The notes under the pieces: generated by a model | Seen by the model: only the letters and a program-made list of their open reading frames with translations | Database searches by the model: none | What the model was told of the DNA's origin: nothing | Source of the DNA: an uncultured virus (IMG/VR IMGVR_UViG_3300014911_000629) | Lineage: Duplodnaviria > Heunggongvirae > Uroviricota > Caudoviricetes | Length of the DNA stretch: 64,000 nt | Direction: 5' to 3' (one strand) | Virus record (IMG/VR): IMGVR_UViG_3300014911_000629 | In this document: positions 1 through 64,000 of the stretch, in pieces | Position numbering within the stretch: the stretch's first letter is position 1 | How the letters are laid out: each line of letters opens with the position of its first letter | Translations under genes and position numbers: made by a program

Positions 1-20
1 CATATATACACCTCAAAATT

Positions 21-31
21 TTCCTATGGAA
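21..31. promoter_or_regulatory. Mini-ORB-like dyad upstream of cdc6
   Basis: TTCCTATGGAA, one mismatch from the TTCCA-N-TGGAA Orc1/Cdc6 box, about 50 bp upstream of cdc6 in a probably divergent intergenic region. Confidence 0.35.
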
Positions 32-83
32 GCATGTGGAGAACAAATGGAAAAGTTTATATTTTCGTTTGTAATACACTATT

Positions 84-1289
84 ATGACACTCCAAAAAAC
101 ACTGTATGAATTTCTGGGTGTTAGGAAAGGTGGAGATGGTGGCAAACTCTTTAAAAACGAATTTGTTTTTACTAACAACTTTATACCAGACCATTTAATT
201 GGCAGAAAAAAAGAACAGGAAGTAATAGCAAAGTATCTAAAAAATGCAGAGAACATAAATAAGCATATGTTAATATTTGGTAAAACAGGCACAGGAAAAA
301 CAGTTGTAGTAAGGTGGGTTATGAATAATTTTAATGGAAATATCATTTATAAAGATAATGAAAAAATAATTTACAAAGTTGGAGATAAAAAAGGCATTAT
401 CATGTATTTATCATGCAGGCAATATCCAACAAGATATAGGGTTGTTAATAAGATTGCACAGATAATCAGCGAAAACGATAAAAAAAGCCAGAACTGGAGT
501 AAAGAGATAGAGAGGATAAGAACATTCTCAAAACTGTTAGATTTTATGATAATTATTTTGGATGAAATAGATTATGTTGATGATAAAGATAACTTATTGA
601 TTTCCACTTTTTCAAGATGGGGAGAGTTAGAAGAAAACACTATTTGCTCTCTTGTGCTTATATCTAATAAAATACACTTTTTACAGGAGTTGGAAAAGAG
701 GGCATTTTCCTCATTTCAATGCCTGCAATTGCCATTCTATCCATACAATGCAGATGAACTACAACAGATATTGGAAAATAGAGCCAAACTTGGTATAAAG
801 GATGGTGTTTTGGATGATGATATAATTCCCTACATTTCTGCAATAGTTTCAAGGGAAAGCGGAGATGCAAGGCAGGCGATAGGCATTCTTAAACTTGCTG
901 TTGAGATTGCAGGAATAGAAAACTCTGAAAAAGTAACAAGGCGTCATGTTGATATAGCAAAGAATTATGGTAATCTGTCTGTGTTATTTGGAGAAACAAT
1001 AACATCACTGCCATATCATGAGAGAAATACATTGAAAGCAATCGCACTTCTATATTTAGATAATAAAGAGGTTATAACTACTGGAGATGTATATAAAAAA
1101 TATAGGGAAATTGTGGGAAGTGATATTGCAGTAACACAGAGAAGAATTGCCGATTACATCAGTGATTTGAGTATGCTGGATATTATTTCAGCAAAGGAAA
1201 TATCAAGAGGGAGATATGGAAGAACAAGAATAATTGATTTGAAATATCCTCCAGAGATGATTTTAGAAATATTGAAGGAGGAAGTATGA
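84..1289 (+). CDS. cdc6: Orc1/Cdc6 replication initiator (AAA+ plus C-terminal wHTH)
   Basis: Walker A GKTGTGKT, Walker B IIILDEID, PYNADEL, SGDARQAI, C-terminal GRYGRTR wing. Confidence 0.93.
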   Translation: MTLQKTLYEFLGVRKGGDGGKLFKNEFVFTNNFIPDHLIGRKKEQEVIAKYLKNAENINKHMLIFGKTGTGKTVVVRWVMNNFNGNIIYKDNEKIIYKVGDKKGIIMYLSCRQYPTRYRVVNKIAQIISENDKKSQNWSKEIERIRTFSKLLDFMIIILDEIDYVDDKDNLLISTFSRWGELEENTICSLVLISNKIHFLQELEKRAFSSFQCLQLPFYPYNADELQQILENRAKLGIKDGVLDDDIIPYISAIVSRESGDARQAIGILKLAVEIAGIENSEKVTRRHVDIAKNYGNLSVLFGETITSLPYHERNTLKAIALLYLDNKEVITTGDVYKKYREIVGSDIAVTQRRIADYISDLSMLDIISAKEISRGRYGRTRIIDLKYPPEMILEILKEEV

Positions 1290-1987
1290 TGAGGTATTGG
1301 CATGGAAATATAAGAAAGCCCATATCTCAAAAGGTTAGGTGGAGAGTATATTGTAGAGATAATTTTACTTGCGTATATTGTGGTAGAAAACCGCCTGAAG
1401 TAGTGTTGGAAATAGACCACATAGTTCCTGTAAGTTTTGGAGGAGATAATAGTATAGATAATTTAGTAACATCATGTAAAAGATGCAACTCAAGTAAGGG
1501 TAATAGAATAGATAAAACCAGCACTTTGTTGATGGTAAATAATATGGGTGTTTATCCCTTAATAGTTTTATACGCAATAGTTAGATTGAAAGAAAAAAAT
1601 AAAAGAACATTATGTTATGATGTTGTAGAGGAGAGTAAATTAATAGCAAACGAATTTGGTTTTAAATTTGATGATTTGAGTATAAGAGCAGGATATAGGT
1701 ATGTGAAGGAAATGATTATAAGGGGTATTATCAAATTAGATGATTTACAGTTTTTAAAGAATTGCATTTTAAGAAGAATGGAGTTTGATGAAAGGTTTAG
1801 AAAAATGTTATATGAAATAGAACACCATGTTCTGTCAATAGATGGTATAAAGGAAGTTATAAAAAAATACTTTTCAGATTATGAACTTGTTTTTAACTAT
1901 ATGATTAAACACGGATATATTATTGTTTTTAATGAAAAATACACCATATTAAACATATATGATGGAGGGGATAACCATGAAGTATAA
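1286..1987 (+). CDS. HNH endonuclease domain protein
   Basis: RDNFTCVYCG...LEIDHIVP..GG.NSIDNLVTSCKRCNSSKG. Confidence 0.9.
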   Translation: MMRYWHGNIRKPISQKVRWRVYCRDNFTCVYCGRKPPEVVLEIDHIVPVSFGGDNSIDNLVTSCKRCNSSKGNRIDKTSTLLMVNNMGVYPLIVLYAIVRLKEKNKRTLCYDVVEESKLIANEFGFKFDDLSIRAGYRYVKEMIIRGIIKLDDLQFLKNCILRRMEFDERFRKMLYEIEHHVLSIDGIKEVIKKYFSDYELVFNYMIKHGYIIVFNEKYTILNIYDGGDNHEV

Positions 1988-2297
1988 AACTCTTGAGGAG
2001 GAATTGATTGAGGTCTTTAGGAGACGTGGATTGGAACTGCTTGAGGAGAAGTTTAGAGTAGTGAATGACAACGGAGAGATGGAATGGACTATAAGAGCAA
2101 GGAAAATGGATAGATGCAATATATTCAGGTGTGATTATTGTGGTAGAGAATTTTATCATACTCCTTTGTGGTATGAAGATGAGGAATATCATATATGCTA
2201 CATGTTTTGTTCCGAAAAATGCAGAAGTGCATTTATAGAGAACTATAAAAAGAGCGTTATAAAGAAAGTTGTTAGAAAGTTGATGAAAGGGAGGTAG
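1977..2297 (+). CDS. TRASH/YHS-like zinc-binding protein
   Basis: CDYCG...FCSEKC; start moved to ATG 1977 after GGAGGGG SD. Confidence 0.6.
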   Translation: MKYKTLEEELIEVFRRRGLELLEEKFRVVNDNGEMEWTIRARKMDRCNIFRCDYCGREFYHTPLWYEDEEYHICYMFCSEKCRSAFIENYKKSVIKKVVRKLMKGR

Positions 2298-2303
2298 ATT
2301 AAA

Positions 2304-2852
2304 ATGGAGAAGGAGGCAAATGGATTAATTGTAGATACGATGCTGGCATTCATCATAAAACATGATATTATTGAGGATACATTGAAATTTTTAAATGAAC
2401 TGATAGAAATATATAAGAAGAAAAGTCCATACTTCAAATTCAAAAAAGTCAAAAATAAACCGAAATGCTATCAATACCTTTTATCTTATCTCCATTTTGC
2501 AGGTATAATCGAAAAATATCCAAGAAATGGAGGTTGGAAAATCGTTGATTATAATGCACTTAAAAGAATATACCTGAATTTGCAGAAATGCTATGTGGAT
2601 GATAATGAAAGAGAAAAAATGAAGATGAAGTATAACGGAGATATAATATACAGCAGTATGCAGAGCATAATGTATAGCATTGGGAGAATGATAGGAATAA
2701 AAGAAAAATGCTCGACAGTTGAGGCAATAACCAGCATACTTATTGCATATTACATAGAGAACTATGGAGAAGATGAGTTTATAAAAGAAATATTGAGAAA
2801 ACTTGAAACCATAAAGAAGGTTGTTGAATTAGAGAACAAGGTGATGACGTGA
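2304..2852 (+). CDS. Hypothetical protein, possible wHTH
   Basis: SD GGAGGT; LSYLHFAGIIEK...GGWKI wing-like segment. Confidence 0.55.
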   Translation: MEKEANGLIVDTMLAFIIKHDIIEDTLKFLNELIEIYKKKSPYFKFKKVKNKPKCYQYLLSYLHFAGIIEKYPRNGGWKIVDYNALKRIYLNLQKCYVDDNEREKMKMKYNGDIIYSSMQSIMYSIGRMIGIKEKCSTVEAITSILIAYYIENYGEDEFIKEILRKLETIKKVVELENKVMT

Positions 2853-3082
2853 GTTTGCTCATCATATGGTGCATATTCTTCTTCATAACATTTTTAGCAG
2901 TTGCAAGCATTGAAGCGTGGGGAGGCGATGTCGGAGCAGGAATATTTGTTGGGGGTATATTCGGAGCAATATTTGCAACAATAATGACATTTTTTGCATG
3001 GCTTGTGTTGTATGCCTCCGTTAGGATTTTACTTGCAATACTTCTCATTGTCCTGATAATATATATCTGTGCAAAAATTTAG
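2849..3082 (+). CDS. Small membrane protein
   Basis: Hydrophobic throughout; GTGA overlap with upstream stop. Confidence 0.6.
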   Translation: MSLLIIWCIFFFITFLAVASIEAWGGDVGAGIFVGGIFGAIFATIMTFFAWLVLYASVRILLAILLIVLIIYICAKI

Positions 3083-3301: not shown

Positions 3302-3478
3302 TTATCTCGAACCAATCATGACGTTACCGCACTTCGGACATTTTAAGGTTCTACAAGGAACTCCTCTTGTTTTCTTCATTTCATAGCCACAATTTGGGCA
3401 TATGCATTTTGTAGGAGCAAGTCCAAATCTGCCAAGACCTTGACGCTTTCCGCCTACACCCTGCCCCTTTCCAATCAT
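3302..3478 (-). CDS. 58-aa Gly-rich double zinc-knuckle protein (not in ORF track)
   Basis: Translated by hand: MIGKGQGVGGKRQGLGRFGLAPTKCICPNCGYEMKKTRGVPCRTLKCPKCGNVMIGSR; ATGA overlap with upstream gene; GGAGG SD. Confidence 0.75.
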   Translation of the reverse strand: MIGKGQGVGGKRQGLGRFGLAPTKCICPNCGYEMKKTRGVPCRTLKCPKCGNVMIGSR

Positions 3479-4263
3479 GTCCTCCTTCCTTTTCTATCGC
3501 TGATATACACGTAGGATAAAATTGCAACTCCAAGAATAAACATTGAAAGCAATGCGACATCAAGAGTATCAAATTCTACTGGTTCAGTTACAAGTGTTCC
3601 CTGTGTCTGTTGTGCCATCAATTCATTATATTCCTGTGCGGATGCTGAATATCCCCAGTATTTCTTATACTTATCCCACGGGGTTGGCTTTGTCCAGTAA
3701 GTTCCAGTTCCTTTGACAGTAAGCGTTATTGTTTCAAAGCCACTGCCCCAGTTATAAACACTGCCCTCTCCCTTTAAAGTTACTACGATTTTTGTTTTAC
3801 CGCTATTGTGGTGATAAAATGACTTATCTTTTGGTATTTTTATCTTAAACATGAGATAACTTTTTCCAGTAAATCTATCCCACCAATGCTTATAATATGC
3901 ACATGTGCTTACAGAAAACTCCTGACTTATTACACCACCAAGATTATTAAATGTGTTGCGATATGTCTTTTCATCCTGCAAGAACCACCCTCTTGTTGGA
4001 TATTCTCCCCAAGAATAGAGTTTTATATTCAATGTTTTATACATTATTTTTCCCAATCTATTCCAACCCCCAGCAAAAATAGATTTACTCCATCGTATAT
4101 TAGTTTTAATTGTTATTTTCTCTGGTGTAAATCCCACATATCTATATTTCTTATCAACATATGCCTTCCCTGTATAATAGTATGAGCCAGCATCCGCCAT
4201 ATCCGCAAAAATCGGCGTCATTAACAATCCAACTACCAGTAATGCAATGACCTTACGTATCAT
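3475..4263 (-). CDS. Secreted, C-terminally membrane-anchored basic protein
   Basis: N-terminal signal peptide, C-terminal TM plus basic tail. Confidence 0.7.
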   Translation of the reverse strand: MIRKVIALLVVGLLMTPIFADMADAGSYYYTGKAYVDKKYRYVGFTPEKITIKTNIRWSKSIFAGGWNRLGKIMYKTLNIKLYSWGEYPTRGWFLQDEKTYRNTFNNLGGVISQEFSVSTCAYYKHWWDRFTGKSYLMFKIKIPKDKSFYHHNSGKTKIVVTLKGEGSVYNWGSGFETITLTVKGTGTYWTKPTPWDKYKKYWGYSASAQEYNELMAQQTQGTLVTEPVEFDTLDVALLSMFILGVAILSYVYISDRKGRRT

Positions 4264-4285
4264 AATCTAAAATTTGAAAATAATA

Positions 4286-4313
4286 TTTAAATTTTGGTGG
4301 GATTAACGGGAAA
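4286..4313 (-). promoter_or_regulatory. Class A promoter (GTGGG/GGG boxes + TATA), copy 1
   Basis: + strand tttaaattttggtgggattaacgggaaa; TATA hexamer 23 nt from ATG 4263. Confidence 0.85.
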
Positions 4314-4617
4314 CCCTCAATTTTTCTGCCTCATGCTCAACACATACGAGAAAATCATGCTTATCTTTGATATGTCCGCATTTCTTCATTATCTTTCCAA
4401 GCAATGAAAATTTTTGTATATGGTTCTGATATTCTGGACTTGCCTCCCTTATGGTTTTCTTTGGACAATACTCTCTCTCCTGTGCATCAGTTAAAGTCCC
4501 AATCATTCCTTCGGAGAAGCAAAGCAGGTTTTCAGGTGTTGGTGGCTTATTAGGGTCTATTTTATAGCAGGTGCATGGGGATAACCTTGCCTTTATCTCA
4601 TTTGCTACGATTGCCAT
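4303..4617 (-). CDS. Small Cys-rich protein, SPCTCY family copy 1
   Basis: Paralog of 25412-25699; start moved to MAIVANE. Confidence 0.8.
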   Translation of the reverse strand: MAIVANEIKARLSPCTCYKIDPNKPPTPENLLCFSEGMIGTLTDAQEREYCPKKTIREASPEYQNHIQKFSLLGKIMKKCGHIKDKHDFLVCVEHEAEKLRVSR

Positions 4618-4618
4618 T

Positions 4619-4954
4619 TTAATCTCGCTCCTCAATTATATGCTCAAAACTTAACATATCCTCATAATATTTTATGTCCTTATCGCTTACTGAAAGACGA
4701 GCATTATCATTAGCAAACATTATAATAAGTTCGTTATCAACTGATGACAAAACCTTTCTTGGAATTTTTTGTGAGATAATTTCTCCTTTGCTAACTTTGT
4801 CATTATATATTGCTCTAACCTTTCCCGTAAATTTATTAATTCTTACTTCTATGTTACCAAGATTGCAACTAACATAAGAGGCAGTTTCATTTATGTCGCC
4901 TTTACAAGCATCAATAAACTCTTTTATTATTCTATCAGGAACTATTGATGCCAT
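4619..4954 (-). CDS. Hypothetical protein
   Basis: First gene behind a class A promoter; C..G...C N-terminus. Confidence 0.7.
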   Translation of the reverse strand: MASIVPDRIIKEFIDACKGDINETASYVSCNLGNIEVRINKFTGKVRAIYNDKVSKGEIISQKIPRKVLSSVDNELIIMFANDNARLSVSDKDIKYYEDMLSFEHIIEERD

Positions 4955-4976
4955 GATAATTAAATAAAAACAAAAA

Positions 4977-5004
4977 TATAAATTTTGGTGGGATTGCTGG
5001 GAAA
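4977..5004 (-). promoter_or_regulatory. Class A promoter, copy 2
   Basis: tataaattttggtgggattgctgggaaa; 23 nt from ATG 4954. Confidence 0.85.
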
Positions 5005-5005
5005 A

Positions 5006-5350
5006 TCATAATATCATATAAAACAATATGCCTAATAATATGATTATGAGGATATATATAAATATTGTCTTTAAACTATCATTATAGTTATATTCAGATT
5101 TTTGAGGTATTGCCATTGTCTTTATTAATATAAGCCAACCAATAAACACCAATATAAACATGCTATTATTATTGAATAATAAATAAAGTAGCAATGGAAT
5201 TGGGGTGAATACATAGCCAAATCTAAACAAGATATTTCTATATACAACCCCAGAAAAATTTTTGCCATACTTCTGTATAGTGTAAGTTTCCTCTAAAATA
5301 GCCCATATAACTGGAAGTGAAATAAGTGTAATAAGTGCTAAACCATCCAT
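5006..5350 (-). CDS. Integral membrane protein
   Basis: About four hydrophobic segments. Confidence 0.65.
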   Translation of the reverse strand: MDGLALITLISLPVIWAILEETYTIQKYGKNFSGVVYRNILFRFGYVFTPIPLLLYLLFNNNSMFILVFIGWLILIKTMAIPQKSEYNYNDSLKTIFIYILIIILLGILFYMIL

Positions 5351-5373
5351 GTTTTAATATAGTTAAAGTAATA

Positions 5374-5400
5374 TTTAATTTTTAGTGGGAATACTGGGAA
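5374..5400 (-). promoter_or_regulatory. Class A promoter, copy 3 (degenerate)
   Basis: tttaatttttagtgggaatactgggaa; 24 nt from ATG 5350. Confidence 0.75.
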
Positions 5401-5401
5401 C

Positions 5402-5461
5402 TATCTGCACTGCCACAAGAAAAACCCTTCACAAAATGCAAAATTTACACGAAAAGTAGGG
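5402..5461 (-). repeat. 60-bp conserved 3' element, copy downstream of the large minus-strand operon
   Basis: 49/60 ungapped identity by hand to the reverse complement of 39591-39650; one end has 21 identical nt. Confidence 0.8.
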
Positions 5462-5465
5462 GGTT

Positions 5466-5798
5466 TTACAAAGAAATAATAAGCCAAATGTAGTCATTCA
5501 GGAAGTCAATCATAGTTAAAACAACAAGCAAGGCACAGGCATACTTTGATGCTTTAAGCCATGCATCTCTATCTTTTTTAATTTTCTCTGGAAAATAAAT
5601 CAGTATTAAATAAAATAAAAACCATATGAATATTGAAAACATTAATGCTATTGGAATACCATGAGAAAACATTTTAGCCATTGCTGGATTTCCCTCTATT
5701 GCTCCCTTTTCAAATAGATAAACGGTTATTCCGAATGCTAACATATTGATGGTAAATGCAAGAGCAAACAATAATTTTCTTTCATCCATACCCATCAC
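5466..5798 (-). CDS. DUF5658-like membrane protein
   Basis: GAIEGNPAM motif with TM helices. Confidence 0.55.
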   Translation of the reverse strand: MMGMDERKLLFALAFTINMLAFGITVYLFEKGAIEGNPAMAKMFSHGIPIALMFSIFIWFLFYLILIYFPEKIKKDRDAWLKASKYACALLVVLTMIDFLNDYIWLIISL

Positions 5799-7510
5799 CC
5801 TATATATATGGTTTTGATGGGTTGTGGCTTTGAAGTGCTTTCCTTTTTCTTATGAACTAACTTTTTAAATCCTCCTTTCTTCCTTATATACCATATTAGA
5901 ATGATGATTATAGCAATTATGATGAATGGTAATATGAGGAAAATCAATCCAAGCAAAACTGCTTTATCTTCCATTTTATCAAATTGTGGTATTCCATGCC
6001 CGTATGTATTTCCATCTCCCTTTGGATAACATGACTTTTCCAATGCCCACTCAAAGATGAATGGAACTACACCCTTCCAGAAGAAATATTCTTTTTTGAG
6101 GAAATCCCATAATTTGTAATGCTTTGCATACACAACTGCACATCCTCCTGCAACGATGGGTATTGCCATACTTGTTCCAGATGCAACTTTTTCTCCATGC
6201 AACCAAGGTCCGATGATGCTTTCTCCACCTGCCACAACATCTGGCTTAACCTCATGCAACCCTCTCACAGGTCCTCTACTGCTCCATTCACATATCTGGT
6301 CATCCTCATAATACTCAAGTGTTCTCATTGGGTCTATTGCACCAACCGCAATTGCAGATGGAGATAATGCTGGAGATATTATTGAGTAAGGCATCGGACC
6401 GTAATTTCCACCAGCACAAACAACTATTATGCCTTCACTACGCAGTTCTCTAATCTTTTTATCAACAGCATCTCCAAGATGCCCGCCCCCTCCCAAAGAA
6501 ATTGAAACAACATCTACCTTTAATTTTTTACACATATCAAGTGCATCAAGTAAATATTGCATTGGACAACTGTTCTCCTCTATTACTTTGATTGAATATT
6601 GCTTGCCATTGGTGAATGATGAAACACCATAGAAAACAGCAAAGTTAGTCCAAGTTCCATGCCCATTGTAGTCGTATGGGTCATACATTGCTGGATGCTG
6701 TAATGCTTCTATTAAATACATGTTATATCCTTCATATGTTCTATGAGTAACACCTGTATCTATAACCGCAACCGTTACCTTTCCACTTGTTTTTCCAAGT
6801 TTGTCTATTTTGAGCATATGATACATCTCTGGTATTGTATATGGGTTGTATGGATAAATTGGTGGAGGCATTGGTGGCACATATATGTCGCTTTCATTTT
6901 CCCATCCTTCATCGCTTACTGTAATCCATTTTGTGCATGATGCCCATAAACCATCATTATCCTTAACCATGAGAGTTACCTTATATGTCCCTTCAGCGGT
7001 ATATGTGTGTTCTGGATTTGCCTCACGAGAAACACTCCAATCACCAAAATCCCATTTATATTCGACTATTATGCCATCAGGGTCATATGCTTCTTCAAAA
7101 AATCTAACTGTTTCTCCAGTTCTTGGATTTGTTGGCTCAAAGTAAAAGTTACATACTGGAGGGATTTTTCCTCCAAATGTTATATTTAGCCATTGTGTTA
7201 ATTTAGTTGTATCAACAACAGTTTGTGCAACACCAAGTTTTCCATTATAGGTTGTATTTGCCTCTATAATATCTCCATCCTGTGCAAGTATTGATACTGC
7301 ATACAATCCATCAGCATTCGTAGTAACCTGCTTTGTTTCTGATGTATTGAGATTTGTAACATTAACTGTTATGAATGGAATTGGATGTCCTTCATCATCA
7401 AATACATATCCTGCGACGCCGACAGGCGACCTCTCTGCATTTGAATAAATAGGAATAAATGAAAGTAATAGCATAAGTATTAGCAGTGCTTTAATTTTTC
7501 TTCCTAACAT
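5795..7510 (-). CDS. Membrane-anchored S8 subtilisin-like protease with Ig-like and PKD domains
   Basis: Signal peptide; WDFGD PKD; triad VAVIDTG, NGHGT, SGTSMA; C-terminal TM. Confidence 0.9.
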   Translation of the reverse strand: MLGRKIKALLILMLLLSFIPIYSNAERSPVGVAGYVFDDEGHPIPFITVNVTNLNTSETKQVTTNADGLYAVSILAQDGDIIEANTTYNGKLGVAQTVVDTTKLTQWLNITFGGKIPPVCNFYFEPTNPRTGETVRFFEEAYDPDGIIVEYKWDFGDWSVSREANPEHTYTAEGTYKVTLMVKDNDGLWASCTKWITVSDEGWENESDIYVPPMPPPIYPYNPYTIPEMYHMLKIDKLGKTSGKVTVAVIDTGVTHRTYEGYNMYLIEALQHPAMYDPYDYNGHGTWTNFAVFYGVSSFTNGKQYSIKVIEENSCPMQYLLDALDMCKKLKVDVVSISLGGGGHLGDAVDKKIRELRSEGIIVVCAGGNYGPMPYSIISPALSPSAIAVGAIDPMRTLEYYEDDQICEWSSRGPVRGLHEVKPDVVAGGESIIGPWLHGEKVASGTSMAIPIVAGGCAVVYAKHYKLWDFLKKEYFFWKGVVPFIFEWALEKSCYPKGDGNTYGHGIPQFDKMEDKAVLLGLIFLILPFIIIAIIIILIWYIRKKGGFKKLVHKKKESTSKPQPIKTIYIG

Positions 7511-13621: not shown

Positions 13622-13627
13622 AATTCA

Positions 13628-15575: not shown

Positions 15576-15623
15576 TTTTATCCCTCTTTATATATTTTAT
15601 TTTCATTAATATTTTTTTCCATT

Positions 15624-18708: not shown

Positions 18709-18711
18709 CTA

Positions 18712-49300: not shown

Positions 49301-49395
49301 CTGTCCCGCCCCTCCTCCCTCTTTTTTATTTTTGTATGAAAATTGATGATGGTAAAAAAGGTAATTTTTATATATGCAATTTGTATTTACAAACT

Positions 49396-50089: not shown

Positions 50090-50205
50090 GCGGAACAAGA
50101 CGGGTTGTGTGGAGTTGAACGGGCATTTATACAAATTTTTTGTGTTATGGCAATGGATTTTATAAAAAATGTAAAATAAAAAGATTGCACTGCTGAAAGA
50201 AAAAA

Positions 50206-50247
50206 TTTATATAGCCGAATTGCATATAGTAATTGGTGATGAAAATG
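50206..50247 (+). promoter_or_regulatory. Class B promoter-leader cassette, copy 4
   Basis: tttatatagccgaattgcatatagtaattggtgatgaaaatg. Confidence 0.85.
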
Positions 50248-55061: not shown

Positions 55062-55067
55062 GGAGGG

Positions 55068-56663: not shown

Positions 56664-56788
56664 GTGCTATCAAAATCGTGTTGATAACTGTCTTTGGTAT
56701 AATCATCTATTGGATAATCCTATTCCTGTGGTTCTGGTTAGAAAAAAAGGAGGAGGAATGGTATAGAAGAAAGGGGTGGTTAAAGTGA
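56660..56788 (+). CDS. 42-aa single-TM protein (not in ORF track)
   Basis: GTG start overlapping stop; MSAIKIVLITVFGIIIYWIILFLWFWLEKKEEEWYRRKGWLK. Confidence 0.5.
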   Translation: MSAIKIVLITVFGIIIYWIILFLWFWLEKKEEEWYRRKGWLK

Positions 56789-57156
56789 ATTGTAAAAAAT
56801 ATTCATTAAAAGAACTATGCGAAATGTATATCAGAATGATAGCAACCAAAGTAGATGGAAGGATGAGGGTAGAACTACATGAATGTATAGCAGAGAGAAT
56901 AGGGATTGATTATGATAAACTAAAAACAGTTTTACATAATTTAGATAAGGAAATAGGTTTTGAAATTAAAGAATTTTACACAATAAGAGAGATTAAGCAG
57001 TATGGCAATAAACTCTATGAGAGATTAATCAGATTTGCAAAAGATGAGGTTTTGAATGATGGAGATAGTGTTGAATTTTTAAAATCTATTGGCATGGATA
57101 TTGACGAGTGGGAAGCATACTATCGTGATTATGTAAATTGCAAGGAGGGTGGTTAA
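56776..57156 (+). CDS. Hypothetical protein
   Basis: In operon. Confidence 0.6.
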   Translation: MVKVNCKKYSLKELCEMYIRMIATKVDGRMRVELHECIAERIGIDYDKLKTVLHNLDKEIGFEIKEFYTIREIKQYGNKLYERLIRFAKDEVLNDGDSVEFLKSIGMDIDEWEAYYRDYVNCKEGG

Positions 57157-57964
57157 AGTGATATTGGTAAGTGTAGATTTTGATTATTTTGTAAGAGAGT
57201 TGAAATCTTGGGATTGGGGACATAGTGATGAGAATGGAGGGCAGGCAGGACTATATGCTTACAAGGCATGGTATGTAAGATATGTTACTTCCAGAATAGA
57301 CATAATAAAAGAAACCGACCCTAAAATACATGCTGACTTTGAACCCATACAGTTGTTAAGCAAATTCAGAGAACTTGGATTAAAATTCAATGATAGGACG
57401 AGGATGATGATAGCAGAAAGTCATGGAGAAGCATATCATTTCTTCAAAGAGATGCAATCAAATGTAATGATACATCTGGATGCACACCATGACATGTATG
57501 ATGATAGTGATGAGATAACATGCGGGAACTGGTTGGCTAATCTAACAAAGATAAAGAGAGGCATGGAAATATATCATGTTGTGCCAAAGTGGGAGAGAGA
57601 ATGGTATCCAAATGCGAAATCAAAGGAAGAAATGTTCAAAGAGATTAGCAGTGCTATTAAAAACGAGATAAAGCAGAGAGCAACAATAAGGCACGTGTTC
57701 TTTGAGGATTTGCCAAAATTCAATCAGGTAGTGGAAGGAATTTTCTTTTGCAGGAGCGGAAGTTGGACACCACCACATCTTGACCAAGAATTTATTGACA
57801 TGCTAAAGGTTTTCATAATTGGCACTGGCATATTGCCATCAAATATTATAGAACTTCCTCTAATAGTCAGAAACTTTAACATGAAGGAAATTGAAGAAAC
57901 AAGAAAGAAGTTTTTGGAAGCGGAAAAAATGTTAAGGGAAAAAGGAGGGATGAAAAATGATTAA
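57149..57964 (+). CDS. UPF0489/arginase-like metal-binding protein
   Basis: SVDFDYF, ESH, HLDAHHD, CGNW, RSGSWTPP. Confidence 0.65.
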   Translation: MVKVILVSVDFDYFVRELKSWDWGHSDENGGQAGLYAYKAWYVRYVTSRIDIIKETDPKIHADFEPIQLLSKFRELGLKFNDRTRMMIAESHGEAYHFFKEMQSNVMIHLDAHHDMYDDSDEITCGNWLANLTKIKRGMEIYHVVPKWEREWYPNAKSKEEMFKEISSAIKNEIKQRATIRHVFFEDLPKFNQVVEGIFFCRSGSWTPPHLDQEFIDMLKVFIIGTGILPSNIIELPLIVRNFNMKEIEETRKKFLEAEKMLREKGGMKND

Positions 57965-58103
57965 ATGGGAATGTAAGGAATGTGGAAACGCAAAATGCAT
58001 CCTGATAACAGGAAGTGAAGGCAAGCCCCACATGTGTCCTTTTTCAATAACTGTCCCATCATGGAAAAGAATAGATGAAAATGAAAGGAGGGATGAAAAA
58101 TGA
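57957..58103 (+). CDS. 48-aa Cys-rich protein (not in ORF track)
   Basis: MIKWECKECGNAKC...HMCPF; SD and ATGA coupling. Confidence 0.55.
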   Translation: MIKWECKECGNAKCILITGSEGKPHMCPFSITVPSWKRIDENERRDEK

Positions 58104-58534
58104 AGGTAATAGATAAGTATGGTAGGGAGGTTGATGTGCCATTTATTGATGAAAATGGATGCCATAATAATGGAAAATACATCTGCAATCTTGGATACGC
58201 CTGTGATGGATGTCCATACAATATGGATTTGAAAAAGGAGCATGGAAGGTTAAGAAACTGTCCATACTGCGGAAAGCCATTAGTAGGAGAAAGCAGGACA
58301 GCATTATTCAAAGGCAAGCGAAGGATATTATTTGGGTGCAAATACTGTGGCATGCCATACTACGTAGTTATGCCTAAATCATTGCGGATAGAATGGATGA
58401 TATACAGGATAGGAGGGCGGAAGAAAAGCAGATTTATTCTTGCAAGAGTGAAATTTGAGGAAGGCGGAGACGAAATACTTGAATACATGGAACTCGAAAG
58501 AGTTAAGGATGCTATAAAGCCATTCAGGAATTAG
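58100..58534 (+). CDS. Multi-zinc-finger protein
   Basis: CNLGYACDGCPY, CPYC, CKYC. Confidence 0.65.
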   Translation: MKVIDKYGREVDVPFIDENGCHNNGKYICNLGYACDGCPYNMDLKKEHGRLRNCPYCGKPLVGESRTALFKGKRRILFGCKYCGMPYYVVMPKSLRIEWMIYRIGGRKKSRFILARVKFEEGGDEILEYMELERVKDAIKPFRN

Positions 58535-58545
58535 GGGGTGGTTAA

Positions 58546-59040
58546 GTGTGCATATTGTGTGATGTAAGATATTTTCTAACTGTGCATGATACTGCCATTT
58601 ATTTACAGATATTCGCAAATAAGAAGGAAGGAGAAGGAGTATGGGAGAAAAAACCAAAAAACAGAAAGGAGTTTGATAAGAAAATAACTACAATTACGAA
58701 AGAATTGAATGATGCACCTAACATGGCAACAACATACGAGTTTCTTATGAGAGTTGTAAAGAGTTTTGCAAAGAAGTATGATGATGACCTGTTATCCATT
58801 GCACTTGTATATCTTGATATATTGTGTATAATGAATGGAAGGGATAGAGAGCCGATTGATAAAAAATGGATAGAGAAGATGCAAAGAAAGATGAGAAAAC
58901 TAAAATTCACGGAAAGTGAAAAATGTTATTTTGTCATCAATGCACTAATCCATGATTTCAACAATTTTCATGAGTGGTTTAACAGCGGAAAGAGGAGTGG
59001 AAAGGAGCATGAGAAGGCATACATAAATTACATAGGGTGA
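58546..59040 (+). CDS. Hypothetical protein
   Basis: In operon. Confidence 0.6.
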   Translation: MCILCDVRYFLTVHDTAIYLQIFANKKEGEGVWEKKPKNRKEFDKKITTITKELNDAPNMATTYEFLMRVVKSFAKKYDDDLLSIALVYLDILCIMNGRDREPIDKKWIEKMQRKMRKLKFTESEKCYFVINALIHDFNNFHEWFNSGKRSGKEHEKAYINYIG

Positions 59041-59972
59041 TAACCATGAAGAACCTAATAATATCTCATGGAGATGGAGATGGCGTATGTGCCTGTGCTA
59101 TTTGCTATCAGGCATTAGGCAAGAATGCAATCATTTTGTTTGCACAACCATTCAACATAGAGCATATATTTGAGGAACTATTTAGAAATGGAGAACTGCT
59201 ATCGTTTGATAACATCTATATTATAGACATAGCATATAATGGAAGCATAGAAGCATATCTTGAATATTTAAGAAGAAGCAACAAGAGGGTTATTTACATA
59301 GACCATCATTTTCAATCATTGACAATAAAAGGAAGATATGAAGGAATTATAGATACAAATTATTCTGCGTCCAAACTTACTGCACATTATTTCCATGTGC
59401 TAACACCATTAGAAAAGATTGGCAGTGCATGTGATAAAACCATAATGCTGGCAAAACTTGACCCACTATATGAGGAAGCGGAGACATTGAGAAAGGCATT
59501 GGCGTATGAGCCAGATGATGATATTTTCAGATTAAAACTTGTAAAAGAACTTGCAGATGGAAAAATGCCATCAGAAATAGAGGAAGTGATTGAGAGAGGA
59601 AATAAATGCGAGGAAGAAAGAAACATGCTTTATGAACTTGCCTTGAAAAACATAGAATATGAGGATGAGAAAGTAATCATTGTTAATATGAAACCGATGG
59701 ATTTAGTTGGCAGAGCGGGAAGTATCGCAAGCAGGATGGCGATAGAGAACAAGAAGGCAGTATTTCTCATATATGGCAACAGTAAAACAATCATAACAGC
59801 GAGAAGTCATAGAGACCTTGACATCAATATCGGCAAGATAATGCATAAATACTACAATGGAGGAGGACACAAATACGCAGGAAGCGGAAATGTAGGAAAT
59901 GATAATGACATTGATAGATTGATTAAGGAAATACCAAGAATAGTAGAGAAAAGTTGTGGAAATTGTAAATGA
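59037..59972 (+). CDS. DHH/DHHA1 phosphoesterase
   Basis: HGDGDG, IIDI, YIDHH, SAS, GGGHKYAG. Confidence 0.9.
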   Translation: MITMKNLIISHGDGDGVCACAICYQALGKNAIILFAQPFNIEHIFEELFRNGELLSFDNIYIIDIAYNGSIEAYLEYLRRSNKRVIYIDHHFQSLTIKGRYEGIIDTNYSASKLTAHYFHVLTPLEKIGSACDKTIMLAKLDPLYEEAETLRKALAYEPDDDIFRLKLVKELADGKMPSEIEEVIERGNKCEEERNMLYELALKNIEYEDEKVIIVNMKPMDLVGRAGSIASRMAIENKKAVFLIYGNSKTIITARSHRDLDINIGKIMHKYYNGGGHKYAGSGNVGNDNDIDRLIKEIPRIVEKSCGNCK

Positions 59973-60018
59973 TAATCATGAAAAGATTTATATACAAAAT
60001 TTAGATATAGATTTTGGG

Positions 60019-60903
60019 ATGACAATGGGATTGGATAAGTTTGAAGGAAAGGATGAAAAGAAGGAAAAGAAGGAGGAGAAAAAGGAATTAACTTGGGATA
60101 ACGAGGCGGATAGAACTATACTGGCAACAGCATTAAACATGCTTGGATTTAAGCAAACAGAGAAGCGTAGCGACCTTTTTGTTAAACAGATAAGTAAGGA
60201 TGAAGCAATTTTTGTTGATTTTTCAAAAAATCCGAAGGGAGTATTTTATCCAAAGAAGGGTAGCAAATTGAAAGTTGAGGAGAGAGTGGAATATAAAGCG
60301 TTTAGAGCGATGCAGAAAGGACAGGCAAAGGCAAATCCAGAAAATCCGAAGGAAATCACAATAGTTGATGATGAGGGGAGAGAACAGGTATTATTGATAC
60401 CAGATTATGTTGAAGGTGAAGAAGTTGTTAAGGTTTCTCCACAGGACTTTTTCATTGAATGGGAGGGAAAGAAATACTACATTAAGCCAGAATTTATAGA
60501 GGTAATAAAGAACAGACCAGCACCAAATATTAAGGGTATTATTGATGTTGTCCAGCGTGCCAATGCCATAAGGGATTGGAAAACAGAGATTTTGAAAGAG
60601 CCAGAAAAGATTTTGCCAAAGCAGGTAGATGACCCCAGAGACCCAGAACATTATGATGAGCCAGCGGACATACACAGCAAGGATTATTTGTGTATAGCAA
60701 AAACAACAGTTGTAAGAGCAGATGGAAAAACTTTCACTGCTCATGGTTCTGCTCATCCATTGAGCGTTAGTGGAAACTTGAGACCGAAGATAATAGAAAT
60801 GGCAGAGACACGAAGTTTGGCAAGGGCATTGCGATTTGCTTTTAACATTCATGCTGTAACTGCTGAAGAAATTGAAGATGTTATGGAGGAAAAGGAGGGA
60901 TAA
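60019..60903 (+). CDS. Rad52/Sak-like ssDNA annealing protein (tentative)
   Basis: F.AHGSA...IEMAETRSLARALRFA...AEEI; internal TATA at 59987-59994. Confidence 0.55.
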   Translation: MTMGLDKFEGKDEKKEKKEEKKELTWDNEADRTILATALNMLGFKQTEKRSDLFVKQISKDEAIFVDFSKNPKGVFYPKKGSKLKVEERVEYKAFRAMQKGQAKANPENPKEITIVDDEGREQVLLIPDYVEGEEVVKVSPQDFFIEWEGKKYYIKPEFIEVIKNRPAPNIKGIIDVVQRANAIRDWKTEILKEPEKILPKQVDDPRDPEHYDEPADIHSKDYLCIAKTTVVRADGKTFTAHGSAHPLSVSGNLRPKIIEMAETRSLARALRFAFNIHAVTAEEIEDVMEEKEG

Positions 60904-60904
60904 A

Positions 60905-61198
60905 ATGGATATAGTATTGGCATGGATTTCAGGATTAATGCCATTTTGTTTAGTTGTAACACTATTATTTCATATCTTTTTAAAGGAATTAGATGTGCTT
61001 GAATGTTTTGCATTGGCTTTAATGTTATATTTAGGAATAATAACATGGATAGACACTATATTATGGTTTTTGAATATTTTAACTGGAGAGCCAGAAATAG
61101 TATTTTTCTTTTTCATTCCATGTGCAATCTTATTTGATATTATTCTTGCCAAAAATATATCAATAGAGGTGAAAAGGAGGGATGAAAATGAAGGGTGA
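60905..61198 (+). CDS. Membrane protein
   Basis: Three hydrophobic segments; GGAGG SD. Confidence 0.6.
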   Translation: MDIVLAWISGLMPFCLVVTLLFHIFLKELDVLECFALALMLYLGIITWIDTILWFLNILTGEPEIVFFFFIPCAILFDIILAKNISIEVKRRDENEG

Positions 61199-61982
61199 AA
61201 TAAAGCCACTTTATGGTATTATAGTTATGATTGTATTTACCGTAATATTAGCAGGAGCAATATACATATATGTTGAGAAAGGGCAGAAGGAAAGCAAGCA
61301 AGAAAACACATATACCATAGGTTCAATACTTCATGTAGTAGTAAATGATAGAGACATTGTATGTTTGAAGGGGTTTGACACAGACAATACAAGAGGATAT
61401 ATTATTGGAAAACTTGTAGGATTTTCAGAAGAAGTTGAGATAAATTTCAACGAAGGTGTAGCGTATGCATATGGAGATGAAAACCTGACAGAGGAGGTTT
61501 TATCAATTAATTACTTTGACCCTGAAAATAATATCTTTGTTTATGCGGAAAAAGGAATACAAATTCAAAAAAGAAGATATGACAATAATACTTATCAAAT
61601 AGAACTTGAAACTTATGTGCCAATAGAAAATGTTGTAATAGTTGGAGACGGAGCATCAATACATATACAAGGCGAAAAATTAGAAGTAGCATCAATAGGA
61701 TTTTTAGAAGTAGCAAGTCGGGTTGTATTTCTTGTTACTGTTGAAACAGATAATGCAACAATTTACATTAGAGGACATGTGAAACATCCAGACATGATAT
61801 TTACAAGGAATATTAATTTGACCCAACAATCAGACCAAATAGATACACAATTTGTAAAAATTATACAATATGGTGAATATTGGTTTAAAATATACAGCAT
61901 GCCTGATGGCAGAATAATAATTAGAGTATTTGATAGCAACTGGAACGAAGTTGCGAGAGATGTTATAAGGGTGGAGGGATAA
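61182..61982 (+). CDS. Protein with archaeal pilin-like N-terminal helix
   Basis: KGEIKPLYGIIVMIVFTVILAGAIYIYV resembles the SPVIGVILMVAITVILA pilin helix. Confidence 0.55.
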   Translation: MKMKGEIKPLYGIIVMIVFTVILAGAIYIYVEKGQKESKQENTYTIGSILHVVVNDRDIVCLKGFDTDNTRGYIIGKLVGFSEEVEINFNEGVAYAYGDENLTEEVLSINYFDPENNIFVYAEKGIQIQKRRYDNNTYQIELETYVPIENVVIVGDGASIHIQGEKLEVASIGFLEVASRVVFLVTVETDNATIYIRGHVKHPDMIFTRNINLTQQSDQIDTQFVKIIQYGEYWFKIYSMPDGRIIIRVFDSNWNEVARDVIRVEG

Positions 61983-61983
61983 A

Positions 61984-62160
61984 ATGGGTATAATACCAGT
62001 ATTTAAATGTCCAGCATGTAAAGGCGATGTTATCCTTCAGTTTTATGGACACTTTCTTGAATGGGGATGTGTTGAATGTAATAGGATATGGGGTATAGAG
62101 GTAAGCAAACCTGTTTTTGCACTGGGAGGGATTAACCATGTCAGCAGAAGAAAAGATTGA
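61984..62160 (+). CDS. 58-aa zinc-ribbon protein (not in ORF track)
   Basis: FKCPACKG...WGCVECN; GGAGG SD. Confidence 0.6.
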   Translation: MGIIPVFKCPACKGDVILQFYGHFLEWGCVECNRIWGIEVSKPVFALGGINHVSRRKD

Positions 62161-62581
62161 GTTGTTGATTGAAGAACAAAGGAGGCATCATAAAGAAAAG
62201 GAGAAAGCGGATAAAATAAGGAATATAATCCTATTTCTCATCCTGATTGTTTTGATACTTCGCCTTTTTTACTGTCCATGCCCACAAGCCCCAACCCCCG
62301 TTAAAGGGTATGAGTTAGATAAGTATGTAGAAGACCAGAATGGAAACCCACTTGCAGGAGCAACAGTTATTCTTTATAATCACCCGAATGGAATGGTAAT
62401 CGCACAGGGTGAGACAGATGAGTATGGTTGGTGTAATTTCACCAACCTTCAATATGGTAGATATTTCCTGTGGGTTTCCTATGGTGGTATCACATCCTCT
62501 GAATGGGTGTGGGTAACAGAGGACATGCAGATTACAAATACTCTAACTCTCCCGACGGAAGGGTTGGGGCGTGGGCTTTAG
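62138..62581 (+). CDS. Membrane-anchored protein with prealbumin/carboxypeptidase-regulatory-like domain
   Basis: TM then DQNGNPLAGATVIL...TDEYG...F.NL..G.Y. Confidence 0.7.
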   Translation: MSAEEKIELLIEEQRRHHKEKEKADKIRNIILFLILIVLILRLFYCPCPQAPTPVKGYELDKYVEDQNGNPLAGATVILYNHPNGMVIAQGETDEYGWCNFTNLQYGRYFLWVSYGGITSSEWVWVTEDMQITNTLTLPTEGLGRGL

Positions 62582-62587
62582 AAAAAT

Positions 62588-63208
62588 GTGAAAATGATGA
62601 GGAAAAGCGAGTTGATGCAGGATAAAACCTTCATTGAGTTTATGAGACGATACTATCCTTTTTATAGCAATAGTATGCTATGTAAGTTGATTGAACAAGA
62701 GTATGGCATTAAACTAAAAGTAAAAGATATAGAGAGAATGGTATATGAGTTAAGGAAACAAAACCCTGAACTGATAAAACCGAAATATCCCATACTCTTG
62801 AGAAAGAAAATTCTTGAAAAGAAAGGGTTGCCAAGAGACCCAACAAAGACCCCGAACATGTATGTGATGAAGTTGAGCAAATACCTAATTATCGCAAAGT
62901 GCATAAATATCATAAATTCCATAAAAAATAGAAAAAATGTAAAAAATGTAAAAGACATAGAAGATGAAACAGCATTTATAACATATAAGGACATGGGTGG
63001 GAGGCAACCGACGGTTGTGAAGTATTTATGCAATATCGGAGTTCTTGAAGAATGGGGAGGAAAAACCTATATCTGTAACATAAAGAAATTGCTTGCCCTG
63101 ATAGATGAATTAAGGAAAGCAAAGGATAATTTTGTTGAAGTATATAATGGTAATGGTGGTGAAAATGGTAATAGTAAAAGGTATAGAGAGATTGCCAGAA
63201 CGAATTAA
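62588..63208 (+). CDS. Basic hypothetical protein
   Basis: Long ORF in operon. Confidence 0.6.
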   Translation: MKMMRKSELMQDKTFIEFMRRYYPFYSNSMLCKLIEQEYGIKLKVKDIERMVYELRKQNPELIKPKYPILLRKKILEKKGLPRDPTKTPNMYVMKLSKYLIIAKCINIINSIKNRKNVKNVKDIEDETAFITYKDMGGRQPTVVKYLCNIGVLEEWGGKTYICNIKKLLALIDELRKAKDNFVEVYNGNGGENGNSKRYREIARTN

Positions 63209-63809
63209 AAAGCATATCCTTGATACGGTAAGGCGTGAATATGTGCCTCCAGATGATAGGATATGGGTAACGGAGATACTGTATTGTTTGAGAAAGGCAT
63301 GGTTTAGAAGAAAGATGCCGAAACCGATGGACATACATTCAGCATGGCACTTGTATAGAGGGATAATATTTCATAATGTATGGGAAAGTTTATATGATGA
63401 CAAGGACAAAAAGATAGAGATACCAATTTATAACACAGGTGCAGTTTTAGTTGCCAAATATGATTTTATTGAGGGAGATACCATCTATGACCTGAAATGG
63501 GTTGCAGATGGTTATGAGAAATTTTTAGTCCAGCGTGGAGCAAGCAAGCCACATAAGGAGCAGGTTCAAATTTATTTACATGCAAAAGGGATGAAAAAAG
63601 GCGGTTTGATTTATTTAATGAGCAAGAGCGTTAAAATATTTGAATTTGAACTTGAGGATGATTTTGATATAAATGAATTTTTGAAAAGGGCTTTACTTCT
63701 ATGGGATGCTTTAAAAACGAATACTCCTGCACCTAAAACTCCCCATCCTCATGAATGTAGATACTGCGAATATAAGGACGAGTGTATAAAGGTGGAAAAG
63801 CATGTATAA
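63132..63809 (+). CDS. Solo Cas4-like PD-(D/E)XK nuclease
   Basis: YCLRKAW, G..FH, YDF...YDLKW, QVQIY, ECRYCEYKDEC (four-Cys Fe-S pattern). Confidence 0.8.
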   Translation: MLKYIMVMVVKMVIVKGIERLPERIKKHILDTVRREYVPPDDRIWVTEILYCLRKAWFRRKMPKPMDIHSAWHLYRGIIFHNVWESLYDDKDKKIEIPIYNTGAVLVAKYDFIEGDTIYDLKWVADGYEKFLVQRGASKPHKEQVQIYLHAKGMKKGGLIYLMSKSVKIFEFELEDDFDINEFLKRALLLWDALKTNTPAPKTPHPHECRYCEYKDECIKVEKHV

Positions 63810-64000
63810 CGGAGTAAATAAATGGATAAAGTTGAGCGAATATATGCGAACTGCAATAATAAGAGGATGCACAGATGAGGAAAAATTGAAAAGATTAGCA
63901 CTGCGACACGCTTGGTATCTATTTGGAAATGAGGACGGAACTGTAATAGACAAAAAACTTGAGGAGGAAATAAGGGCATTTATCAGCAGTTTTATCTGGC
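63802..64000 (+). CDS. Hypothetical protein, truncated by window end
   Basis: ATG overlapping the Cas4-like gene's end; open reading frame to 64000. Confidence 0.5.
   Translation, partial: MYNGVNKWIKLSEYMRTAIIRGCTDEEKLKRLALRHAWYLFGNEDGTVIDKKLEEEIRAFISSFIW

Follow-up and report, generated by a model that had tools for sequence, protein, structure and literature searches.

A Large Hallmark-Poor Element, Possibly a Membrane-Particle Virus of Vent Archaea, with a Secretome Arm and an Enzymatic Arm

Nature and Extent of the Element

The 64,000-nt stretch of DNA analyzed in this study (IMG/VR record IMGVR_UViG_3300014911_000629; hereafter the window) belongs to a mobile or extrachromosomal element. 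An ordinary chromosome is rejected, because the window contains no housekeeping gene (no ribosomal, tRNA-synthetase, or metabolic housekeeping gene was detected among 91 window proteins with Pfam and NCBIfam), the identity of its Orc1/Cdc6 protein drops outside a small metagenomic cluster, and its relatives were found only on vent or sediment metagenome contigs. We give somewhat less than an even chance to the reading that the element comprises the greater part of the genome of an undescribed large virus, the particle of which is associated with a membrane and neither icosahedral nor tailed (spindle-like, pleomorphic, or enveloped). This reading is based on the presence of two regulons, phage-type enzyme pairs (one of them employed by Acidianus two-tailed virus in particle remodeling), a tRNA gene of its own, and a Cas4-like nuclease, the lack of partition and transfer genes, and a layout and a variation between strains similar to those of large spindle viruses of ANME-1 archaea.

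The original prediction for this DNA, made from its letters, had proposed either an enveloped, pleomorphic, or vesicle-borne virus or a large extrachromosomal element. The mobile or extrachromosomal part of this proposal stands, with no host genes in the window; the viral part, including the type of particle, is a reading of the gene set. Typical chromosomal orthologs among host genes had been named as an outcome that would speak against the proposal, and neither host nor housekeeping genes were found in the 64 kb.

The window has a G+C content of ~35%, contains no N, and is 96% coding. A non-overlapping call gave 92 open reading frames (ORFs), and domain and profile searches (Pfam, PHROGs, and NCBIfam) covered 91 proteins; all negative results on hallmark genes given below refer to the 64-kb window. 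Plus-strand genes occupy 84–3082 and 42.1–64.0 kb, and minus-strand genes extend from ~3.3 to 38.6 kb with few plus-strand exceptions. GC skew tracks the coding strand along the window, and both the ORF strands and the skew agree with the opposed gene arms that had been predicted.

A related contig of 74,605 nt (L001) provided information about the extent of the element. Its terminal part is 86–97% identical to window positions 52.1–64.0 kb (93–97% in five of the six aligned blocks) and ends 61 nt past the right end of the window. Given this end and its total length, the relative reaches ~10.5 kb beyond the orc1 side. The whole element exceeds the window, with at least ~10.5 kb more beyond the orc1 side in this relative. 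We estimate that the window covers about 85% of a double-stranded DNA element of ~75 kb, the hosts of which would be thermophilic vent archaea.

We then analyzed the distribution of the element. Parts of a 10-kb stretch were detected in 17 listed runs belonging to 13 studies; most of these runs carry hydrothermal vent, sediment, or marine metagenome labels, and one is probably the source of the window. Members of the close Orc1 clusters lie on contigs of 74,605 and 60,311 nt. No megablast match to the window was found in INPHARED, and a search of 185,579 species genomes (GTDB) revealed no related locus with a homolog of Orc1 or of a 129-amino acid (aa) membrane protein family described below, apart from one spurious 14-residue bacterial match. 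One IMG/VR contig (L011) has only a Cas4-like stretch in common with the window (31%) and is otherwise unrelated. No description of this family was found in the literature searched, which covered few subscription journals. With regard to the host, one homolog of the 129-aa protein is labelled Thermoplasmata archaeon, on a 2,458-nt contig of a metagenome-assembled genome (MAG); the Thermoplasmata-like host suggested earlier has this one label in its favor.

Two Promoter Classes

Motif D1 (TTTCCCRNTANYCCCACCAAAATTTAWAWA) matched the window eight times at three or fewer mismatches, and motif D6 (TTTATATA..AATTGCATATA..TTGGTGAT) matched four times, as compared with no match to either in 100 shuffles. 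The claim of two distinct promoter classes is therefore borne out.

All eight copies of D1 are located between 4.3 and 38.6 kb. D1 is an 18-nt element directly upstream of a TATA box, and in seven of the eight copies the TATA box terminates 21–22 nt upstream of the first start codon, a count which includes an internal ATG for the plus-strand copy. Because of this spacing, the first genes of D1 units would be leaderless. Considering that the eight promoters have a common 18-nt element upstream of TATA, it is possible that a single activator turns on the entire D1 set.

The D6 copies are found at 42.25, 46.17, 48.23, and 50.21 kb (positions 42250, 46165, 48227, and 50206). In each of these near-identical promoters, an operator-like palindrome of the GCAATTGC type separates the TATA box from a GGTGAT ribosome site. 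Genes internal to operons carry a GGAGGGATGAAAATG-type junction, of which nine copies were detected. The D6-driven genes form the enzymatic arm, which might be expressed early.

Minus-Strand Secretome Arm

A Kyte–Doolittle scan detected at least one hydrophobic segment in 37 of the 92 ORFs. After four doubtful rows were dropped (the alternative-frame ORFs 26392+, 26995+, and 62662-, and the HNH protein), ~33 membrane or secreted proteins were left, close to the 30 or so that had been predicted. An N-terminal signal or anchor is combined with a C-terminal anchor in 11 proteins. The genes of the minus-strand region considered here are as follows.

3302..24346, minus strand: main secretome ("structural-like") arm, consisting of three short D1 units and a long D1 operon
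3475-5350, minus strand: three short D1-driven units
24346 down to 5466, minus strand: long D1-driven operon, with type-I and multi-pass membrane proteins among its genes
5466-5798, minus strand: DUF5658-like protein, just below the DUF5658 cut-off
5795-7510, minus strand: membrane-anchored S8 subtilase
7491-8804, minus strand: PKD protein
8777-13621, minus strand: 1614-aa giant protein with LamG, DUF2341, PKD, and Big_7 domains
13628-15331, minus strand: 567-aa protein
15624-16145, minus strand: archaeal signal peptidase I (TIGR02228, 1.1e-21, 77.4 bits vs cut-off 51.85)
16843-18708, minus strand: membrane-anchored S8 subtilase
25412..33893, minus strand: further D1-driven units
25412-26903, minus strand: small soluble proteins, a D1 unit
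28917-30437, minus strand: protein with three PKD domains, accompanied by a 283-aa type-I protein and a DUF2085 membrane protein
30517-32013, plus strand: type-I membrane protein, an exception within the minus-strand region
32611-33893, minus strand: basic 125-aa protein and 269-aa helical protein, a D1 unit

The ~30 secretome proteins might be processed by the signal peptidase I and two subtilases of the element itself and inserted in the host membrane. These proteins, among them the large lectin and PKD proteins, would then become the particle coat and attachment fibers. The DUF5658 family is also annotated in SSV1. The 1614-aa lectin giant has no archaeal-virus match in the phage collection, and the ESM Atlas model of the 269-aa helical protein (32611-33420) has no neighbor at TM ≥0.5.

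Two small Cys-rich proteins of this region, encoded at 4303-4635 (minus strand) and 25412-25699 (minus strand), are paralogs with 39% identity (1e-13), each of which is D1-driven. A TasA-like fiber was considered for the product of 23201-23833 but found no support: the AlphaFold model has a pLDDT of 55.8, and Foldseek returned nothing beyond generic Ig-like sandwiches (TM ≤0.39). Where the two arms converge, the gap contains a GC-rich island (3105-3199, 57% in 80 nt), which is adjoined by a 58-aa zinc-ribbon ORF (3302-3478).

Plus-Strand Enzymatic Arm

The plus-strand arm encodes the proteins listed below, together with many acidic proteins that have no relatives.

42250..64000, plus strand: enzymatic arm with four D6 promoters
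42627-43787, plus strand: CobS-like AAA+ protein (phrog_249, 1.7e-55)
43784-45751, plus strand: CobT-like VWA protein, predicted partner of the CobS-like AAA+ protein
49336-49878, plus strand: winged helix-turn-helix regulator
52856-53992, plus strand: RavA/MoxR ATPase (bpMoxR 1.1e-49, AAA_lid_8 3.8e-15)
53989-54444, plus strand: MazG-like protein
55068-56663, plus strand: ViaA-like VWA protein
59037-59972, plus strand: DHH/DHHA1 phosphoesterase
59956-60903, plus strand: 315-aa protein with a possible annealing-protein motif
60872-62581, plus strand: small membrane or pilin-like proteins
63132-63809, plus strand: Cas4-like nuclease (Pfam)

PHROG families were matched by 19 of the 91 window proteins. 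The strongest matches belong to the MoxR/VWA pair (phrog_19600, 6.2e-87; phrog_24053, 2.7e-63), followed by the CobS-like ATPase. NCBIfam matches to RavA (9.8e-60) and ViaA (2.4e-20) are both below the equivalog cut-offs. The window contains a MoxR–VWA pair of the RavA–ViaA type and a second pair of the CobS-like/CobT-like type; in each case the partnership is predicted from sequence.

The C-terminal motif of the 315-aa protein possibly recalls annealing proteins of the Rad52/Sak type, as judged by eye, and profile searches gave no support to this idea. At the end of the arm, among the small membrane proteins, lies the gene of a 266-aa beta-rich protein (61182-61982, plus strand), the N-terminus of which is faintly similar to the archaeal type IV pilin/archaellin signal (18.6 bits vs 20). 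A 271-aa protein (57149-57964, plus strand) contains the stretch HLDAHHDMYDD and has a faint match to the arginase family (E 0.2); it may be a metal-dependent hydrolase.

The Cas4-like nuclease, an enzyme of a type common in recombination modules of viruses, was also found on a different metagenome element (L002, 1-16643), which has only this protein (84% identity) and a prealbumin-fold membrane protein (44%) in common with the window and which also encodes two YopX proteins, ParB, a ribbon-helix-helix protein, and a TnpB-type gene. Since L002 is otherwise different and yet carries the nuclease at 84% identity, the Cas4-like nuclease appears to move between unrelated elements.

Comparison with Known Viruses

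The MoxR–VWA pair links the window to several viruses. The ATPase of Moorella phage MTATph1 is 38% identical to the RavA/MoxR ATPase of the window (3e-64), and the gene after it encodes a protein with 29% identity over 447 residues to the window VWA protein (8e-70). MoxR and VWA genes are also paired in Bacillus phage 0305phi8-36. Both are tailed bacterial phages with full head and tail modules, to which the window is otherwise unrelated; moreover, the two genes are adjacent in the phages, whereas two small genes separate them in the window.

In Acidianus two-tailed virus (ATV), ORF618 (8.3e-23) and ORF892 (4.2e-8) match the same pair. In ATV, p618 is reported to be a MoxR-type chaperone of the virion, a binding partner of the VWA protein p892, and a factor implicated in the growth of tails outside the cell (PMC4124505). 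The ATPase of Sulfolobus monocaudavirus SMV4 also matches that of the window (6e-23). The element resembles Bicaudaviridae, the genomes of which (50–76 kb) encode an integrase, a giant virion protein, and, most notably, a RavA-type MoxR ATPase with a VWA partner. However, the hosts of Bicaudaviridae are Sulfolobales, and the window ATPase is closer to the bacterial phage versions (38%) than to those of Bicaudaviridae (25–28%). No counterpart could be detected in the window for the ATV head proteins ORF131 and ORF145, for ORF567 and ORF1940, or for the radical SAM protein of ATV, so that the protein set typical of Bicaudaviridae was not found.

A similar overall layout has been reported for large vent spindle viruses of ANME-1 archaea, the genomes of which are divided into a structural arm and an enzymatic arm, with the latter more variable in gene content (PMC9894754). 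The element and these viruses have in common the vent habitat, a size of ~70–80 kb, the two-arm layout, and variation of the enzymatic arm, which matches the cassette replacements described below. In contrast, the capsid proteins of the ANME-1 viruses, which are hydrophobic and alpha-helical, can be recognized, and these viruses encode a family B DNA polymerase, whereas the element has Orc1, no polymerase in the 64 kb, and no match to a thin spindle-capsid profile.

For spindle viruses of Thermococcales, one study reports a core that includes lectin proteins bearing membrane helices as well as many membrane proteins, and states that Orc1/Cdc6 was not found in any viral genome of that study (PMC12934983). 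These viruses (PAV1, TPV1, and candidate families) are similar to the element in their core of lectin (concanavalin-like) and membrane proteins and in their vent habitat.

The structural module of His1, according to its annotation, shows the same pattern of signal plus C-terminal anchor as the secretome arm of the window. The genomes of PAV1 and TPV1 are ~18–21 kb. Among haloarchaea, the membrane-protein particles of capsid-less vesicle plasmids and pleolipoviruses (pR1SE, HRPV-type) would leave a gene set of this kind, and their genomes are much smaller than the element.

Replication and Recombination Genes, tRNA, and Neighbors

Genes for replication and recombination, the tRNA gene, and possible control regions are located at the left edge of the window and between the two arms.

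21..31, plus strand: ORB-like (origin recognition box-like) dyad TTCCTATGGAA, immediately 5' of orc1, where the window is cut
84..3082, plus strand: Orc1 operon (profile searches and hydrophobicity scan)
84-1289, plus strand: Orc1/Cdc6 (TIGR02928, 256.5 bits vs cut-off 181.3)
1286-1987, plus strand: HNH endonuclease
1959-2297, plus strand: TRASH-like zinc protein
2304-2852, plus strand: 182-aa protein of unknown family
2849-3082, plus strand: 77-aa very hydrophobic protein
34506-34582, minus strand: initiator-type tRNA-Met (62.2 bits), the sole RNA gene in the window
34583-35560, minus strand: radical SAM/SPASM enzyme (Pfam, NCBIfam)
35563-35835, minus strand: 90-aa acidic ORF
within 36182..39549, minus strand: regulator-like genes of 244 aa, glutaredoxin-like (132 aa), 300-aa coiled-coil, and AbrB-like (127 aa) genes
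38652-39549, plus strand: D1-driven gene pair, replaced by other sequence in a relative
39797-40942, plus strand: tyrosine recombinase (Phage_integrase 1.7e-12, N-terminal SAM-like domain, phrog_1 integrase 4.8e-21)
41836..42276, no strand: noncoding divergence region between the arms, 440 nt

Orc1/Cdc6 and a recombinase had both been named in the original prediction, and both were confirmed by profiles. The Orc1 protein is an AAA+ protein with a lid and a C-terminal winged helix (Cdc6_lid 4.5e-19 and Cdc6_C 3.1e-21 in Pfam) and exceeds the cut-off of the TIGR02928 family, but lies below the equivalog of cellular Orc1 (NF001625, 240.7 vs cut-off 501). Its five closest proteins are all metagenomic (92, 88, 87, 81, and 80% identity), whereas identity to any cellular Orc1 (Archaeoglobi, Alkanophagales, Thermoplasmatota, and others) is at most 38%. 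Replication might begin with this divergent Orc1/Cdc6, which would recruit the host helicase. The dyad TTCCTATGGAA is the only TTCC-NN-TGGAA match in the window and has a unique 26-nt context; it is a possible origin element.

The region at 41836-42276 is another possible origin or a master control region. It contains an iteron-like repeat CTCCGCTYTAC (~3 copies), ACGGC (~5 copies), and copies of the AATTTTACAAA motif. RNA folding of the GC-rich stretch at 41.9–42.1 kb gave no structure signal (z 0.18 and -0.47).

The recombinase matches its families at the values listed above and is Xer-like rather than SSV-type, with a XerA score of 67 bits vs a cut-off of 220 and no match to PF16795. It may resolve multimers or integrate the element. 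The tRNA-Met has, by eye, the marks of an archaeal initiator (an A1:U72 pair and three G-C pairs in the anticodon stem) and directly follows the radical SAM/SPASM gene and the 90-aa acidic ORF. All 15 clusters of the radical SAM family, which span 96 to 38% identity, come from metagenome contigs; beyond these, identity drops to at most 32%, to bacterial mycofactocin-type maturases. It is possible that this enzyme matures a peptide or protein and is confined to the element family.

The tyrosine recombinase and the tRNA gene raise the alternative that the window is the cargo of a genomic island or integrated element in the chromosome of a poorly sampled archaeon. Neither end of the element was observed, and one homolog is assigned to a Thermoplasmata MAG, both of which would fit an island. 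However, no host genes occur in the 64 kb, no related locus was found in the species genomes searched, and the contigs of the relatives are of element size (60–75 kb). In addition, a 16,380-nt contig of run X2, collinear with 30.3–46.1 kb of the window at a few per cent divergence, has the tRNA and the recombinase in the same context as the window. Because this context is kept, the tRNA gene lies inside the element rather than at an attachment border: it has element genes on both sides in the relative too, and the window holds a single tRNA 3' end, with no second copy or att-like repeat. We therefore regard an island as very unlikely.

Absence of Hallmark Genes

Searches of the 91 proteins with Pfam, PHROGs, and NCBIfam revealed no capsid, portal, terminase, packaging ATPase, VirB4, coupling protein, or relaxase. 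Walker A motifs were detected in Orc1 and the two MoxR-class ATPases, plus a chance match in the integrase. The profiles and the Walker A scan are in accordance with the earlier statement that no HK97 capsid, portal, terminase, double-jelly-roll (DJR) capsid, VirB4, or relaxase could be recognized.

With respect to known groups, the combination of HK97 capsid, portal, and large terminase which characterizes Caudoviricetes was not found within the 64 kb, and the three "head and packaging" PHROG matches correspond to the P-loop of Orc1, an HNH domain, and PKD repeats. For Varidnaviria, there was no DJR or FtsK-A32 profile match and no extra Walker A motif at the sequence level. For conjugative elements with a type IV secretion system, neither VirB4/TrbE nor VirD4/TraG was detected by profile in the 64 kb, which contain no further P-loop protein. 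No partition gene of the ParA, ParB, or SegAB type was found among the 91 proteins (Pfam, NCBIfam), and PADLOC recognized no defense system in the window.

The missing genes might lie outside the window, as would be expected for a conventional virus, either tailless icosahedral with an internal membrane or tailed. The relative L001 does extend ~10.5 kb beyond the orc1 end, and the end of the plus arm (60872-62581) is again membrane- or pilin-like, so that a second structural block may begin there; a DJR capsid gene and its ATPase need only 3–5 kb. Nevertheless, a tailed morphogenesis module normally exceeds 10 kb, and its protease, scaffold, tail, and baseplate neighbors were not seen in the 64 kb. 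L001 was not picked up among the viral contigs of IMG/VR. A conventional virus is in our opinion improbable.

Search for a Particle Protein and Evaluation of the Viral Reading

The window encodes several small two- or three-helix membrane proteins, one of which, together with its neighbor, was analyzed further.

24437-24826, plus strand: 129-aa three-helix membrane protein; the gene has a TATA box of its own and lacks a Shine-Dalgarno site
24804-25376, plus strand: winged-helix protein (RPA_C/TrmB-like) with two C-terminal membrane helices

The second gene is predicted to encode a membrane-tethered DNA-binding protein and to be co-transcribed with the first. Homologs of the 129-aa protein were found 10 times, at 72–98% identity, and in the 60,311-nt relative it is 98% identical, as compared with 81% for Orc1. 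An exhaustive profile search among 1.84 billion representatives detected only 12 clusters of this family. Its invariant residues are G19, G23, P46, G90, and P102, and its members often end in GNETG, an N-glycosylation sequon. The AlphaFold model is of low confidence (pLDDT 58.5, pTM 0.28), and ESM Atlas gave nothing usable for this protein.

Several results weigh against a viral nature of the element. A virion protein was not identified by sequence profile or by fold. The 129-aa protein was initially similar to VP21 of His1 (phmmer 7e-4 among ~700 ORFs; BLASTP 36% over 55 residues, 6e-6 for one comparison; hhalign probability 18%), but a 17-sequence alignment lowered the probability to 1% and showed the common loop motif to be unconserved, and the homology was rejected. 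Two hairpin-like proteins (20284-20547 and 2849-3082) also gave low hhalign probabilities as spindle capsid candidates (2.3% and 0.9%); all three comparisons were made against a thin reference alignment of four capsid sequences, from a group that diverges beyond sequence recognition. Only 2 of the 79 ATV ORFs have a convincing match in the window, and nine more phmmer pairs (E 0.0006–0.007) look like chance. MoxR/VWA pairs, Cas4-like nucleases, and Orc1 are also found in cells and plasmids, and a plasmid that alters the surface of its host could make equally good use of secreted adhesins, subtilases, and a signal peptidase. None of the listed runs in which the element was detected is an RNA run, relatives were not found in IMG/VR scans (exact end patterns were absent too), and the early and late timing of the two arms, which is suggested by their gene content, is unproven.

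Other searches were also negative: BLASTP to the capsid protein of BLv25 gave an E-value of 1.7, low-stringency PHROG and Pfam scans of the small or unknown proteins gave nothing significant, and PDB sequence searches with three window proteins gave no match. A virion protein may still be present, as sequence comparison often fails to recognize the capsid proteins of spindle and other archaeal viruses.

The main rival reading is that the element is a large non-conjugative plasmid or integrating extrachromosomal element that forms no particle, replicates by Orc1, is resolved by the Xer-like recombinase, and remodels the host surface by means of its minus arm. Such remodeling (by adhesins, lectins, proteases, and possibly filaments) could benefit the host or the element, for example in attachment or cell-to-cell contact. 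Consistent with a plasmid, no capsid, packaging, or lysis gene is present among the 91 proteins, relatives are absent from the IMG/VR scans, and PKD, LamG, DUF2341, S8 subtilase, and signal peptidase I (the last above its cut-off) are typical of cellular surface proteins. An Orc1 and recombinase backbone is also usual for archaeal plasmids. On the other hand, the absence of ParA/ParB/SegAB and of a transfer ATPase from the 64 kb would be unusual for a low-copy plasmid of ~75 kb. The two tight promoter regulons, the tRNA gene, and gene pairs that are best matched in PHROGs also argue against it, and the best-conserved gene encodes a small membrane protein and not a replication protein. We consider a plasmid a serious but distinctly minority possibility.

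A more specific form of the viral reading is that the element is the founding genome of a new family that infects Thermoplasmata-like hosts of vents, forms a membrane particle without any known capsid homolog, has its own secretory-processing set, and controls an eight-promoter leaderless regulon by a single activator. This combination is rather doubtful at present. If the element is a virus, it would extend the large-genome design of structural plus enzymatic arms to a new host group and to unrecognized particle proteins, and would also be one of the rare viruses to encode a signal peptidase of their own.

Viruses and plasmids of archaea that lack known hallmark genes are invisible to the pipelines that fill virus catalogs: relatives of this element are absent from IMG/VR and INPHARED, yet occur in vent metagenomes of many studies. 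The MoxR–VWA pair, common to ATV and jumbo-type phages, offers a handle on widespread and unexplained viral gene pairs. In addition, the two regulons and the exchange of cassettes at motifs lead to testable predictions about timing and recombination.

Cassette Exchange between Strains

Comparison of related strains showed that accessory genes are swapped as whole cassettes bordered by promoter or ribosome-site motifs. Relative to the window, whole genes are missing or replaced in L001 at 52452-52859, 53989-54444, and 56776-57156, and L001 carries one extra small gene. The X2 contig lacks 34026-34502, and its counterparts of 38652-39549 and 42277-42630 are replaced. Joints at 33959, 38644, 39591/39761, 42288, 46206, and 48266 lie at or beside D1, D6, and AATTTTACAAA repeats. 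Because replacement joints coincide with D1, D6, and AATTTTACAAA, these control motifs seem to serve as borders of cassette exchange. Further cassette spans between near-identical strains were observed at 42288-42628 and 48266-48713.

Three runs (X7, X11, and X12), which carry one coded organism name instead of a metagenome label, contain contigs of 0.6–1.8 kb at a depth of 5–7 that are 85–96% similar to window positions 31.5–49.8 kb. The same runs also contain contigs of up to 355 kb, and they may represent a culture or enrichment containing a host.

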